64,000 bases of DNA from the NCBI GenBank assembly GCA_028690055.1, contig JAQVBZ010000003.1:7779-71778 (forward strand), in the 5' to 3' direction. The DNA is from Minisyncoccota bacterium. Its GTDB lineage: Bacteria > Patescibacteriota > Minisyncoccia > JAHIHE01 > JAGLIN01. Under the pieces are notes generated by a model, which was given only the letters and a program-made list of their open reading frames with translations, made no database searches and was not told the DNA's origin. Positions 9,302 to 40,792 of the stretch are shown piece by piece. A program made the translations under genes and the position numbers. Every line of letters begins with the position of its first letter. Position 1 is the first letter of the stretch.

Positions 9302-10915
9302 ATGATTAACAAATACATCATAGAAGAAATCGTCAAGCGGGCCGCTGCGGGGAAGAAAGATTTTTCCGAAAAAAAGATATCTAAAATCAAGCGGGCCGCC
9401 TCGAAAAAATTCGGCACCTCCTGTCCTACAAACATTGAGCTACTACGTGAGTATCGCAAACTGTTAGCGCAGAAAGAAATTGTAAAAAGCGAAATCATCG
9501 AGAAAGCGCTGGTCACAAAAGAAATCCGCACCGAGTCTGGCGTGGCTATCGTGGCGATTCTGACCAAACCTTACCCCTGCCCGGGAAAATGCGCCTACTG
9601 CCCCGACGAGAAAAATATGCCCAAGAGTTACCTTTCCAACGAACCGGCCGTGATGCGCGCGGTACTCACCAAATTCCGTCCGTACGAGCAAGTGAAAGCA
9701 CGATTGGAATCGCTGGAAACCACCGGACACAAGACCGACAAGATTGAACTCATCGTAATGGGCGGGACTTTTTCGTATCTTCCCAAACGCTATCAGACTT
9801 GGTTTACCAAAGAATGTTTTCGCGCCTGCAATGAATTTGGCAAAGAAAAGGGAATTTATAAAGATTTAGATTTGGAAGCACAGCAAAAGAAAAACGAAAA
9901 AGCTAAAAAAAGAATCATAGGGCTGACGCTGGAAACGCGTCCGGATTATATCGACGAGAAAGAAATTCTCAGTATGCGCAAATTAGGCGCCACGCGCGTC
10001 GAACTCGGAGTGCAGAGTGTGTATGATGATGTTTTGAAGCTCAACCGGCGCGGACACGGCGTAGCGGAAACCGTGCGCGCCACCCGGCTGCTCAAAGAAG
10101 CGGGCTTCAAGGTCAACTATCATATGATGCCGGAACTCCCCGGCTCCGACGTGGAGCGGGACGTGCAAATGTTCGCGGAGCTTTTTGGCAATCCCGATTT
10201 CCAACCGGATATGATAAAGGTCTATCCCTGCGTAGTCGTCAAAGGCACCCTCATCTATAAATGGCTGCGAACGGGAAAATATCAACCCTATTCCGACCAA
10301 GAGCGCCTCGACATGCTAGCGCGCATCAAGAAGAATCTCCCCTACTATGTCCGCGTCACGCGTCTCATCCGCGACATCCCCTCGACCAGCATCATCGCAG
10401 GCAACAAGATTACGAACCTGAGACAAGCACTCGAAATGAAAAGTGAAAAGGAAGGATGGAAATGCAAATGCATCCGCTGCCGGGAAATACGCAGCGAGAC
10501 GCAGGTAGAAGAAAAAGATTTGCAACTTTTTCGCGAAAGCTACGAAGCATCCGACGGCAAAGAAATTTTTCTCACTTTCGAGGACAAAAAACGCGAACAC
10601 CTCTATTCGCTGCTGCGGCTAAGGATAAATTCCGAAGAAGCCGGTGCCAATCATTTCATCCCCGAACTACGAAACGCCGCTCTCATTCGCGAAGTCCATA
10701 CTTACGGCAAACTCGTGCCAGTCAAAACCCGTGACTCCAAATCCGCCCAGCACATCGGACTCGGGAGAAGGCTTCTTTTGGAAGCGGAAAAAATAGCCCG
10801 TGAAGAATTCGGAGCAAAAAAAATCGCCGTCATCAGCGGTGTGGGCGTGCGTGATTATTACCGTAAAAATGGTTATAAGTTAGAAGGAAGTTATATGGCG
10901 AGAAAATTATTATAG
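9302..10915 (+). CDS. elp3: Elp3-like tRNA uridine(34) carboxymethyl-modification radical-SAM / GNAT acetyltransferase
   Basis: 537 aa. A radical-SAM Cys cluster (CPGKCAYCP) is followed by the Elp3 signature RVELGVQSVYDDVL..RGHGV and a C-terminal GNAT-like domain. This two-domain layout is diagnostic of Elp3/KAT9 homologues. Confidence 0.8.
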   Translation: MINKYIIEEIVKRAAAGKKDFSEKKISKIKRAASKKFGTSCPTNIELLREYRKLLAQKEIVKSEIIEKALVTKEIRTESGVAIVAILTKPYPCPGKCAYCPDEKNMPKSYLSNEPAVMRAVLTKFRPYEQVKARLESLETTGHKTDKIELIVMGGTFSYLPKRYQTWFTKECFRACNEFGKEKGIYKDLDLEAQQKKNEKAKKRIIGLTLETRPDYIDEKEILSMRKLGATRVELGVQSVYDDVLKLNRRGHGVAETVRATRLLKEAGFKVNYHMMPELPGSDVERDVQMFAELFGNPDFQPDMIKVYPCVVVKGTLIYKWLRTGKYQPYSDQERLDMLARIKKNLPYYVRVTRLIRDIPSTSIIAGNKITNLRQALEMKSEKEGWKCKCIRCREIRSETQVEEKDLQLFRESYEASDGKEIFLTFEDKKREHLYSLLRLRINSEEAGANHFIPELRNAALIREVHTYGKLVPVKTRDSKSAQHIGLGRRLLLEAEKIAREEFGAKKIAVISGVGVRDYYRKNGYKLEGSYMARKLL

Positions 10916-10946
10916 AAACCTCCTAAAATTTCTAAATAACGCGGGG

Positions 10947-11027
10947 GTATCATCCTGAATGTAGCGGAGCGGAACGAAGGATCCCGTTACTATAATGGGA
11001 TTTTCGGAGTACCTCAGAATGACACGG
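10947..11027. repeat. Two-armed REP/MITE-like element (variant left arm)
   Basis: The left arm ATCATCCTGAATGTAGCGGAGCGGAACGAAGGATCCC is inverted relative to GGGATTTTCGGAGTACCTCAGAATGAC. The element lies directly after the elp3 stop. Confidence 0.6.
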
Positions 11028-15538: not shown

Positions 15539-16036
15539 CTACTTCTTCTCCGCTTTCGCCTTCTTTAATTTGAAGACTTTTCTCTCATTATATTCCGAAA
15601 CTTTTCCGTTATTCCACTGCTGTACCGGGCGCAAATATCCCACCACGCGCGAATAAACTTCGCAGGGCTGTTCAATCAGACATTTGGGGCAAGTAAAATG
15701 TTCTCCTACCAAATAGCCATGATTCGGGCAAATGCTGAAAGTCGGAGTCAGCGACAGATAAGGCAGAGAATGCTTCTCGAAAATCTTCTTAATGATCAGT
15801 TTAGCCTCTTGACCGCTCGGCAGTCTCTCTCCTACAAAAGCGTGTAGCACTGTTCCTCCGGTATATTTGGTCTGTAACGGATCTTGCAATCTTACCGCTT
15901 CAAAGAGATCGTCAGTATATCCTACCGGCAGCTGAGTCGAATTGGTGTAATATGGTTCTCCTTTTGCTTTAGCTTCCTGAATTTTTGTAGCTTTTGTCAT
16001 AGTTTTAAAATTATGTTTTAAAAATATCCGGTCCAA
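15539..16036 (-). CDS. Stand-alone NrdD C-terminal zinc-ribbon/glycyl-radical domain (anaerobic ribonucleotide reductase fragment or spare-part-like protein)
   Basis: 165 aa. The sequence YYTNSTQLPVGY...LQTKYTGGTVLHAFVGE...TPTFSICPNHGYLVGEHFTCPKC...EVYSRVVGYLRPVQQWNNGKVSEYNERKV matches the conserved C-terminus of class III RNR, where the RVxGYL glycine-radical loop is followed by WNxGKxxEYxxRK. No NrdD body lies upstream. Confidence 0.6.
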   Translation of the reverse strand: MDRIFLKHNFKTMTKATKIQEAKAKGEPYYTNSTQLPVGYTDDLFEAVRLQDPLQTKYTGGTVLHAFVGERLPSGQEAKLIIKKIFEKHSLPYLSLTPTFSICPNHGYLVGEHFTCPKCLIEQPCEVYSRVVGYLRPVQQWNNGKVSEYNERKVFKLKKAKAEKK

Positions 16037-16089: not shown

Positions 16090-16863
16090 TTAATTGACTC
16101 CCGCCCATACTTTCGCGACATCATAAGAGTCGAACTGCTGCTGCTGCAAAGACCTCATATCTACTCCAAAAGCCCCGTAGTCTTTATTAGCCAAATCATA
16201 AATCGCCGTCTGATAAATCATTTTGCTGTCATCCGTCGAGAAGACAACGTTACCTACCATATCATATTTACTATCCATGATTCCAAAAGACATAAATTCA
16301 TCTTTTCGCGCAGGATTGTAAAGTTTAAATATCACTGAACCGTCAATACTATCAGTACTTACAACCACGAGAGTAGTTCTATCATGAGATATGGTCTTCA
16401 CGGAACCCTCTGTTTCTCCGTATATTTTTTCCATTTGCCCGGATTTCAAATCAATTCTATAGAGACATGAATAATTATCTTCGAACGGTATATATCCGCC
16501 CGCCCCTTCGCGCTTCGTAGTCAAGAACAGACTATTGCCAGCCTGAGCCAAACGTTTAACGGAAAAATAAAAATCTTCTTTCATCTTCCCGATTTCGATT
16601 TCTCCGTTCTTAACCGTAAACACCTGAGAAATATCCTTCCCGTCCTCCGCCTCTATTTTTAGATTATCAAGAGAAATTGCATTTCCGATTTTATTGTTTT
16701 CTACGGCCTGTTCAGGGTTTTTGTCCCCCATAAAGACACTGAAATTATCGAAATAATACAAAGTCGCGCATATCAGCAAAATAACTGCCAACGCCAGAAC
16801 AGTTTCTAACGGATTCTTCTTTTTTTCCGGAGAATTCCCCGCATTCTCGACCCACTCTTCCAT
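16090..16863 (-). CDS. Hypothetical membrane-anchored extracytoplasmic protein
   Basis: 257 aa with an N-terminal TM (LALAVILLICATLYYF) and a beta-rich C-terminal domain; no assignable family. Confidence 0.4.
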   Translation of the reverse strand: MEEWVENAGNSPEKKKNPLETVLALAVILLICATLYYFDNFSVFMGDKNPEQAVENNKIGNAISLDNLKIEAEDGKDISQVFTVKNGEIEIGKMKEDFYFSVKRLAQAGNSLFLTTKREGAGGYIPFEDNYSCLYRIDLKSGQMEKIYGETEGSVKTISHDRTTLVVVSTDSIDGSVIFKLYNPARKDEFMSFGIMDSKYDMVGNVVFSTDDSKMIYQTAIYDLANKDYGAFGVDMRSLQQQQFDSYDVAKVWAGVN

Positions 16864-16978: not shown

Positions 16979-17344
16979 TTAGGTAGTCGCACTCTCCACT
17001 ACTTTCTTATCAGCCTTTCTTTCCTTCAAGAAAAAGAAAATTCCGGCAGAAATATAAAATAATGCGGACACGAAAGATAGAGAGGCGAGAGAATACGCAC
17101 CCAAAACATCGATTGTAGCCGTAGTTGCAAATATCATAAATATTACCACCAATACACTTAAAACAGCTCCCGCAAATTTTCTCCGGCTAGACGACAAACC
17201 GACCACTTTCCTCTTCAACCTCAAGAAAACAACAGGAGAAATAAATATAAAAGAATACAGGACAATAGCTAAATAACCGCCAAGTCCGATTCCATCAGAA
17301 CAATGATTCTGATAGCACCTTATATCATCGGGAACGACAGACAA
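16979..17344 (-). CDS. Small hypothetical membrane protein
   Basis: 121 aa with 3 predicted TM helices. Confidence 0.3.
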   Translation of the reverse strand: MSVVPDDIRCYQNHCSDGIGLGGYLAIVLYSFIFISPVVFLRLKRKVVGLSSSRRKFAGAVLSVLVVIFMIFATTATIDVLGAYSLASLSFVSALFYISAGIFFFLKERKADKKVVESATT

Positions 17345-34124: not shown

Positions 34125-34673
34125 ATGAACCGAGACAGAGTAGCCGATTTCCTCTTCGAAATCGGCACTTTGCGCAATATGCGCAGAATGCAAAGCCAAA
34201 TCTTACCAGAATCAAATGACAGCATCGCTTCTCACTCTTTCGAAGTGGCAATCATCGGTATGATTCTTGCCCGAAGCGAAAACGCTGATGAGAATAAAGT
34301 AATCAAGATGTGCCTCTTCCACGATATCGCAGAAGCAAGGATCGGAGACGCAAATTTCATCCACAAGTTTTATGTTCAAGCTGACGAAGACAAGGCGTTG
34401 CGCGATCAAATCGCCGACACGCCGATTGCTGAGGAGATTTTGGCAATCATCAACGAATTTGAAGCGAGAGAGAGTAAAGAGGCTATTATCGCCAAAGATG
34501 CGGATCTGCTGGATCAGATTTTAGTCCAGTCTGCCACAATCAAAAACGCCGAGGACAAAAAGCTCTGGAATGAAAACAGCGCCAAAGACCTCCAAACTGA
34601 AATTGCCAAAGAATTGGCCAAGGCCCTGTCAGACACAAATCCCCTGTCCTGGGTTTATAAAATGGCAGAATAG
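34125..34673 (+). CDS. HD-domain 5'-deoxynucleotidase (YfbR-like)
   Basis: 182 aa with the H...HD...D metal motif (ASHSFEVA..., CLFHDIAEARIGD). Confidence 0.7.
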   Translation: MNRDRVADFLFEIGTLRNMRRMQSQILPESNDSIASHSFEVAIIGMILARSENADENKVIKMCLFHDIAEARIGDANFIHKFYVQADEDKALRDQIADTPIAEEILAIINEFEARESKEAIIAKDADLLDQILVQSATIKNAEDKKLWNENSAKDLQTEIAKELAKALSDTNPLSWVYKMAE

Positions 34674-40201: not shown

Positions 40202-40792
40202 TTAAAAAGTTTTTACAATCTTCTTGATTTTTCTGATTACCTCACTGTCCGCCTCGCGCTTCTCCTCGATAGTCATCTGTCGCCAAGTCTTATCGATTCT
40301 ATCCACTTTAAAAACAGTACCAAAAGCAAAATTATATTGAAAACCTTGCCCAAAAAACGACCAATCCAGTCTTCCGTCCAGTTTATTAGAAAATGACTGC
40401 ACGGCACCATCAGGATTTGCAATAGCATATGCGCTTTGAAAATAACAAGACAAATCATCGATATTTTCTGTTTCGTTTTTCAGATATTGCAAAAGCTCAG
40501 GCTTATTCATTTCTTTTTCAAACCTCCCTCCCCACCTTTTTACCGACACGCCGGGAAAACCACCCAGAGCGTTCACAAAAAATCCGGTATCGTCACTGAG
40601 CGTAACTTCCCCGCTTGCCGCCGCCCAAGCAAGTGCTTTCTTCTTGGCATTTTCTTCCAGCGAATCGATACCTTCCTCCACCTCTATTTTATCCAATCCC
40701 AAATCTTCATACGACAAAACATCCCAAGTCGGGAAATATTTTCTCCAATCACTTATTTTCCCCGGATTGCCTGAACCGATAAATAGTCTCAT
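40202..40792 (-). CDS. rdgB: Non-canonical purine NTP pyrophosphatase (Ham1/RdgB family)
   Basis: 196 aa with the N-terminal FIGSGNPGKISD (xTGNxGK) motif and SDDTGFFVNALGGFPGVS (DDSGL..ALxGxPGvyS). Confidence 0.7.
   Translation of the reverse strand: MRLFIGSGNPGKISDWRKYFPTWDVLSYEDLGLDKIEVEEGIDSLEENAKKKALAWAAASGEVTLSDDTGFFVNALGGFPGVSVKRWGGRFEKEMNKPELLQYLKNETENIDDLSCYFQSAYAIANPDGAVQSFSNKLDGRLDWSFFGQGFQYNFAFGTVFKVDRIDKTWRQMTIEEKREADSEVIRKIKKIVKTF

Follow-up and report, generated by a model that had tools for sequence, protein, structure and literature searches.

What can the detached end of an anaerobic ribonucleotide reductase do in a genome region that holds nothing else of the enzyme? This question is raised by an open reading frame (ORF) on the minus strand (15539..16036) of the 64-kb stretch of DNA analysed here in full (hereafter the window). 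An initial sequence-only reading had recognized in it the terminal module of class III ribonucleotide reductase (RNR), NrdD, had seen neither the RNR body nor the activase NrdG in the window, and had proposed either a spare part of the GrcA/YfiD kind or a decayed relic in an organism with a salvage lifestyle. All motifs that it had quoted can be read from the ORF (YTNS, LQTKYTGGTVLH, CPNHGY...CPKC, SRVVGYLRPV, and WNNGKVSEYNERK), with zinc ligands and radical glycine intact, and the CPR-like origin that it had assigned to the DNA also held.

The program-made ORF begins at a TTG codon. Because orthologues start at the same Met, the true start of the gene, here named nrdD_C, is almost certainly an internal ATG, which makes the TTG start probably wrong and gives a protein of 153 aa (the coordinates of this and other features of the window are listed in Table 1); the identical 153-aa product has been called by gene callers on nine public contigs. 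The Pfam profile PF13597 matches this protein over profile positions 436-562 of 562 (E=1.4e-45, 156.4 bits with a cut-off of 26.2), and the NCBIfam profile PRK08270 over positions 545-683 of 684 (E=3e-58), while the cut-offs for full-length equivalogs were missed both for PRK08270 (197.5 bits vs 548) and for TIGR02487 (124.9 vs 326). In a PDB search it aligned to residues 518-642 of Thermotoga maritima NrdD and residues 608-735 of Prevotella copri NrdD. By these alignments, homology to the NrdD C-terminus is far beyond chance, scores below the equivalog cut-offs are read as those of a fragment by design, and the claim that the ORF aligns only to the C-terminal end of NrdD (the last ~130 residues) was borne out. 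A Pfam scan at E<=1 returned PF13597 alone and no PF01228/GrcA-type match. Scanning for promoters and terminators around nrdD_C gave none beyond shuffle expectation.

Table 1. Coordinates of nrdD_C, its predicted parts, and other ORFs of the window mentioned in the text (aa numbering of the 153-aa protein).
Feature	Position	Strand	Remarks
nrdD_C, C-terminal half of a probable split class III RNR, 153 aa	15539..16000	-	stop codon 15541..15539
Probable start codon (ATG)	16000..15998	-	same Met in orthologues
Lys-rich N-terminal extension, aa 1-15, MTKATKIQEAKAKGE	15956..16000	-	alignment of stand-alone vs fused forms
Barrel segment, aa 16-88	15737..15955	-	alignment to P. copri NrdD from residue 608
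Zinc-ribbon region, aa 91-113, C91-P-N-H94...C104-P-K-C107...C113	15662..15730	-	sequence positions
Glycyl-radical loop, aa 115-126, VYSRVVGYLRPV	15623..15658	-	read directly from sequence
Radical glycine G121 (codon GGA) in SRVVGYLRPV	15638..15640	-	
C-terminal tail, aa 127-153, QQWNNGKVSEYNERKVFKLKKAKAEKK	15542..15622	-	W, G, K, E, R motif conserved
257-aa ORF between prfB and nrdD_C	16090..16863	-	no Pfam match
121-aa ORF between prfB and nrdD_C	16979..17344	-	no Pfam match
Radical_SAM + Radical_SAM_C ORF, 537 aa	9302..10915	+	sole radical-SAM ORF of the window
HD_3/YfbR-like gene	34125..34673		
Ham1 gene	40202..40792		

Stand-alone homologues of nrdD_C of ~150 aa are abundant, and alignment of 40 of them, together with fused NrdDs, allowed the protein to be divided into parts. 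Its N-terminal extension is without counterpart in fused NrdD and stands in for the linker that follows 'YPDIITA(G)' there; among stand-alone forms it varies in length and sequence and is always Lys-rich, and in an AF2 model of nrdD_C its pLDDT is below 50. The barrel segment comprises the last beta-alpha units of the NrdD core, modelled by AF2 (at low to moderate confidence) in the order PYYTNS strand, helix, YTGGTVLH strand, helix, and LPYLSLTPTF strand. Residues T20, N21, S22, G49, G50, H54, P87, T88, and F89 are invariant in the 40 homologues (in the numbering of that alignment, which equals the numbering of the 153-aa protein plus 1). The four zinc ligands (C91, H94, C104, and C107) are all present; the C and H residues of the ribbon are invariant or nearly so in the 40 homologues and are kept in fused relatives too, and the counterpart of this ribbon is the structural Zn site of the glycyl radical domain (PMC11226230). 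In the glycyl-radical loop, which aligns with RIVGYL of T. maritima NrdD, the residues E, V, Y, R, V, G, Y, R, and P do not vary across the 40 homologues. Thus, the short form with intact Gly and zinc ligands is a property of related genomes as well. The tail equivalent to that of nrdD_C lies across the top of the barrel in P. copri NrdD, whose barrel core spans residues 123-671 and whose glycyl radical domain spans residues 676-739 (PMC11226230). Given these domain limits and the alignment, nrdD_C corresponds to the last ~65 barrel residues plus the whole radical domain. AF2 models of the isolated C half (pLDDT 66) and of a fused homologue (pLDDT 61) are both of low confidence, and Foldseek found no match with E<0.1 in the PDB for the former.

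We then considered what else the window encodes. The ten-stranded barrel with its thiyl-radical Cys loop is found neither in the nrdD_C ORF nor anywhere else in the 64 kb: Pfam scans of the large ORFs revealed no NrdD body, and tblastn queries with a natural N half and three full-length NrdDs, run at E values up to 10, matched the window at one place only, 15572-15982, within nrdD_C itself. NrdG-like activases (tblastn, E<10) and ftsZ were likewise absent from the window. The gene is thus stand-alone, and the statement that the window lacks both an NrdD body and NrdG was confirmed. The only radical-SAM ORF of the window was rejected as a glycyl-radical activase on the grounds of size and architecture. 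The two ORFs that lie between prfB and nrdD_C have hydrophobic N-terminal or internal stretches; they are kept on contigs with the identical protein, whereas at this place other lineages show other small ORFs or lack any.

Considering that short NrdD-like ORFs are common at the ends of metagenome contigs, nrdD_C might be an artefact, namely a frameshifted or mis-assembled full-length nrdD. However, the gene sits mid-contig (on contigs of 64, 97, 98, and 56 kb) with unrelated housekeeping genes on either side, none of the frames contains a remnant of an NrdD body, and the same architecture appears in independent assemblies (ENA, JGI, NCBI, and Logan), all of which make this explanation extremely improbable. 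The gene order prfB-(0 to 2 small ORFs)-nrdD_C-ftsE-ftsX was observed in the window and in L001-L006, L015-L020, L035, L095, and L189-L194, on contigs of up to 98 kb. This setting is conserved in more than 10 species, including seven GTDB species genomes (L015-L020 and L035), and so is the start codon of nrdD_C. One of these loci (L017, JAHYJV010000001.1) carries two tandem C halves (10001..10390 and 10590..10979) between prfB and ftsE, the coding sequences of which are identical (0 synonymous and 0 non-synonymous differences), so that the copies stem either from a duplication that is very recent or from faulty assembly.

Patescibacteria have a reduced metabolism. Together with the absence of an RNR body and NrdG from the 64 kb and the presence of HD_3/YfbR-like and Ham1 genes in the window, this would fit a decaying nrdD remnant in an organism that has no de novo dNTP synthesis and lives on salvage. 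The pattern of sequence evolution speaks against such decay, however. By the Nei-Gojobori method, dN/dS of the C half was 0.029 for the window and L015, whose orthologue is 94% identical, and 0.05-0.07 in other pairs that were not saturated, synonymous sites being saturated in most comparisons; the catalytic and structural residues are all invariant in the 40 homologues; and the 153-aa product is intact on nine contigs, with start codon and gene order retained in more than 10 species. The corresponding values in relatives were 0.03-0.05 for the N half described below and 0.10-0.13 for nrdG, so that nrdD_C, nrdD_N, and nrdG are all under strong purifying selection (dN/dS 0.03-0.13). A decayed relic is hence very unlikely. 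The HD and Ham1 genes on which the proposed salvage lifestyle was based do exist in the window, but the argument from them to loss of RNR did not hold.

Where the rest of the enzyme may be found is indicated by relatives. In L009 (GCA_017973895.1), a 581-aa ORF comprises an ATP-cone and PF13597 positions 1-434, and a 153-aa ORF located 32 nt downstream comprises positions 436-562, so that the two halves tile the profile without overlap. Adjacent halves were also found in L186/L187, as an operon ftsZ-nrdD_N(608 aa)-nrdD_C(145 aa)-nrdG, and in L037, where nrdD_N is followed by nrdD_C. Lineages close to those with a relocated C half have the order ftsA-ftsZ-nrdD_N(577-582 aa)-nrdG, with no C half nearby. 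A homology search with the N half yielded two length classes (~577-614 aa and ~700 aa), and among the best 120 clusters homologous to it, 82 were N-only. The MCCR motif of the thiyl-radical loop is present in every one of these 82 clusters, and YTNS or RVVGY in none. When the tails of 40 of the 82 were inspected, 'YP(D/E)II(T/S)A' was followed by no more than a few residues in the shorter forms and by a further tail of 20-35 aa in the longer ones. In the alignment the split point coincides with a variable linker of fused enzymes, and in the low-confidence AF2 model of a fused homologue it falls in the loop that joins a helix to the YTN strand. The adjacent-split N halves (P0272-P0287; L037 6480..8318 and L186 8001..9827) have an extra conserved C-terminal tail of ~35 aa (...KADLVVKMVNxEAQKQAVCA), which is absent from fused NrdD and from N halves of the relocated clade and may be a new docking element.

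Both halves were also detected together in one metagenome-assembled genome (MAG), GCA_023135635.1, where the C half (P0394, MCK4799483.1) lies on contig JAGLSR010000030.1 and the N half (P0372, MCK4799536.1) lies with nrdG on contig JAGLSR010000040.1; this co-occurrence is that of two contigs in a binned MAG and not of a closed chromosome. The same P0394/P0372 pair co-occurs in metagenomes ERZ23498528, ERZ23498442, and ERZ23498510. In relatives nrdG adjoins the N half, as it does in this MAG, and its product (~240 aa) has Fer4_12 and Radical_SAM domains. A metagenome scan with N half P0288 added 13 contigs (L195-L205, L209, and L222) on which nrdD is N-only and a C half is missing; on nine of these the fetched stretch also includes nrdG. 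The scan gave fused and adjacent-split examples too, and it returned no N half from JGI samples 3300035208 or 3300048050, in which the exact protein of the window occurs. No C half was found in the cluster listings for an 831-kb scaffold that carries N half P0351, and comparison of P0018 with N-half proteins by NCBI accession numbers gave no match. Since relatives have an N half and nrdG, and one MAG holds all pieces, the supposed absence of an RNR body and NrdG from the organism is not supported, and consequently neither of the two interpretations built on it, spare part or relic, is supported either. The underlying idea that the radical module must act in trans was upheld. Taken together, these comparisons argue that the product of nrdD_C is most likely the small subunit, carrying the radical, of a class III (anaerobic) RNR that is split by nature and whose N half and nrdG are presumably located in the window's own genome outside the 64 kb.

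It was also considered whether nrdD_C might be a spare part similar to GrcA/YfiD, which would replace the oxygen-cleaved C-terminus of a full-length NrdD encoded elsewhere. In favour of this, the radical module is intact and stands alone, phage-like contigs have the C half and no other piece, much as phage T4 carries the GrcA homologue Y06I (PMC8683613), and L017 has two tandem copies. However, relatives with the same arrangement possess only a truncated N half, which ends exactly where nrdD_C begins and is followed by nrdG, with no full-length parent; nrdD_C includes ~65 barrel residues beyond the glycyl radical domain; it lacks a PF01228/GrcA-type match; and lineages with full-length NrdD have a different candidate of ~92 aa for such a role. 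A spare-part function of nrdD_C is therefore improbable. Because the N-half partner never had a radical domain of its own, nrdD_C would be obligatory and not spare. Alternatively, the relocated C half might have been co-opted to serve another partner, be it another enzyme or a role connected with prfB or ftsEX, given its stably conserved position between prfB and ftsE far from nrdD_N-nrdG and its occurrence in phages without an N half within 10 kb. Such a change of partner is likewise hard to credit, considering that the protein is 62-75% identical to the tails of fused NrdDs, including barrel strands that are meaningful only against the NrdD core, that the N half found in this clade would otherwise be without a radical glycine, and that neither an activase nor a second glycyl-radical enzyme turned up in the window.

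With regard to the origin of the split class III RNR, the ancestral state in neighbouring Patescibacteria, the fused NrdDs of which provide the tails compared above, is ftsZ-nrdD(fused)-nrdG. In a neighbor-joining tree of the N region, N-only proteins form one near-monophyletic group with a single fused exception, P0344. This fused protein (as well as L206-L208) nests inside the split clade and has a longer linker, and its position there requires either two fissions or a re-fusion. Split-intein trans-splicing was rejected as an origin of the two pieces: N halves end in variable tails, C halves begin with a Met-initiated, Lys-rich extension without intein blocks, and the in-frame inserts of other nrdDs sit at positions other than the split. 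These inserts (one to three per gene, ~0.3-1.2 kb, near N-half residues 230, 282, and 393) are presumably inteins; they give open frames of 1025-1488 aa and occur in GTDB genomes L041, L057, L066, L072, L074, L083, L088, and L094 as well as in many viral loci (L111, L115, L129, L132, and others). A homing endonuclease at the junction was also rejected, the spacers of 32, 110, and ~170 nt in L009, L186, and L037, respectively, containing no ORF of note.

Based on these observations we propose the following scenario. In an ancestor of this Patescibacteria clade, nrdD would have been cut in a variable surface linker between 'YPDIITA(G)' and 'EPYYTNS'. The N half (~578 aa), retaining the ATP-cone, the thiyl-radical Cys loop 'SMCCRL', and the greater part of the 10-stranded barrel, would have remained together with nrdG, the gene for the activase, at the ancestral locus ftsZ-nrdD-nrdG, and the C half would have moved, in the lineage of the window, to the distant site between prfB and ftsE. 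The 153-aa protein may bind the N half non-covalently and contribute the last beta-alpha barrel units, the zinc ribbon, and the glycyl-radical loop. The radical-SAM activase NrdG would then abstract a hydrogen from G121, and the loop of the C half would insert into the barrel and pass the radical to the Cys of the N half, after which ribonucleoside triphosphates would be reduced as in ordinary NrdD. Physical assembly and activity of the two halves are thus predicted from their sequences.

Other class III RNR loci showed detached radical modules of several kinds. The C half alone was found on phage-like contigs L106 (9998..10459, IMGVR_UViG_3300035208_000971), L007 (4746..5168), L008 (10001..10423), and L107 (6936..7304), with 72-86% identity to the window protein and with neither an N half nor nrdG within 10 kb. 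Its neighbors are a DnaB-like helicase, HNH endonucleases, NinB, and an exonuclease in L106, and portal (SU10 portal in L007), CHAP, and SSB genes in L007/L008. The C half of L106, which is 86% identical to the window protein, comes from JGI metagenome 3300035208, and the exact protein of the window is also present in this sample (L193). Lineages with fused nrdD often have an ORF of ~92 aa between full-length nrdD and nrdG, for example at 10425..10703 (+) of L044 on the complete chromosome OZ246399.1, and also in L038, L043, L045, L048-L051, L054, L055, L061, L066, L069, L078, L086, and L094. Its product has a CxxC...CxxC zinc ribbon of its own followed by a near-exact copy of the glycyl-radical loop and tail of NrdD (TEVYSRVVGYLRPVSQWNEGKQQEFKDRKEFK), and belongs to a family of at least 120 clusters (86-110 aa, down to 54% identity) that includes MNSN_06970 of the cultured Minisyncoccus archaeiphilus. 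This small protein is a candidate for the first 'spare part' of a class III RNR. A second break was observed in L183 (8243..11207, IMGVR_UViG_3300045988_178698), L185, L217, L220, L221, and L223, where NrdD (~686-741 aa) stops within the zinc ribbon and is devoid of the Gly loop. In the viral locus L183 the truncated nrdD is followed by nrdG and then by a 66-aa ORF with SRVMGYYRP, and in the cellular loci L217, L221, and L223 a Gly-loop ORF of 54-74 aa lies between truncated nrdD and nrdG; no Gly-loop ORF was detected beside the truncated nrdD of L220, a 701-kb contig.

The phage C halves, mini-proteins, and second break suggest that glycyl radical modules working in trans are a recurring theme among class III RNRs, and on this recurrence we base a further, tentative idea: the split might be adaptive and not neutral, with the oxygen-labile site of the glycyl radical placed on a 17-kDa 'cartridge' that is cheap and can be exchanged; we regard this as possible though rather doubtful. 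After cleavage at G121 by O2, re-synthesis and re-activation by NrdG would be needed for the small subunit only, and the 65-kDa body would be reused. Phages of these bacteria would carry a cartridge gene of their own and thereby boost dNTP synthesis of the host, and the ~92-aa mini-proteins of sister lineages and the second break before the Gly loop could represent independent solutions to the same problem.

Compared with canonical NrdD/NrdG (phage T4, Escherichia coli, T. maritima 4COI, and P. copri 8P23), nrdD_C belongs to the same family by sequence and shares the zinc ribbon, the RVxGY radical loop, and the C-terminal tail, and relatives of the window have the same type of activase. The difference is that the last ~130 residues form a separate polypeptide encoded by a separate, distant gene, and that in relatives the body (ATP-cone, barrel, and Cys loop) is a second polypeptide. 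Natural splits are familiar from other RNR classes, and a class II enzyme divided into NrdJa and NrdJb occurs in Pseudomonas aeruginosa. The same class II division (nrdJa/nrdJb) is known in Thermus phage phiYS40, and Aeromonas phage Aeh1 has NrdA-a/NrdA-b; in these split class I and II RNRs the complete family profile is spread over two ORFs, whose products are believed to join non-covalently, and introns or inteins can interrupt nrdD genes of phages (PMC3653736). Those splits, however, concern class I or II enzymes encoded by adjacent ORFs, whereas the present one concerns class III, its detached piece carries the radical cofactor, and this piece has been relocated in the clade of the window. 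In addition, the Aeh1 split was caused by insertion of a homing endonuclease, whereas no mobile element is found at the junction here (L009, L186, and L037).

To our knowledge, glycyl radical enzymes are thought to hold radical glycine and active site on one chain. The in-trans radical modules known are only GrcA and Y06I, both for pyruvate formate-lyase, and according to a 2026 review spare parts are known only for formate lyases (PMC13450708). By analogy, nrdD_C may resemble GrcA/YfiD and T4 Y06I as a small stand-alone protein with an activatable radical glycine that docks into a larger barrel, and a phage-borne version exists for both. However, GrcA derives from pyruvate formate-lyase, consists of the radical domain only, and rescues a damaged full-length enzyme, whereas nrdD_C derives from NrdD and has extra barrel strands and a zinc ribbon. 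In the literature searched, the coverage of which was incomplete, we found no report of a split nrdD in Patescibacteria, of a spare part for NrdD, or of a class III RNR whose radical-bearing tail is a separate, relocated gene. The phage-like lone C halves, the ~92-aa mini-protein, and the second break point are also new with respect to the literature searched.

A split class III RNR would have consequences for annotation as well as for enzymology. Annotation pipelines label the pieces 'hypothetical' or 'ribonucleoside triphosphate reductase', which is likely an annotation error that the split reading corrects, and metabolic reconstructions could wrongly score these Patescibacteria as lacking RNR or as having a broken one. 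In fused enzymes the glycyl radical domain is highly mobile (PMC11226230), and because of this mobility its docking steps are hard to trap there; the two-piece NrdD would offer a system for following docking of the domain, its presentation to the activase, and its return to the barrel. The lone C half of phages and the mini-protein of the cultured M. archaeiphilus make the repair idea experimentally testable. If the exchangeable-cartridge interpretation were true, glycyl radical domains supplied in trans would be a trait that recurs among class III RNRs.
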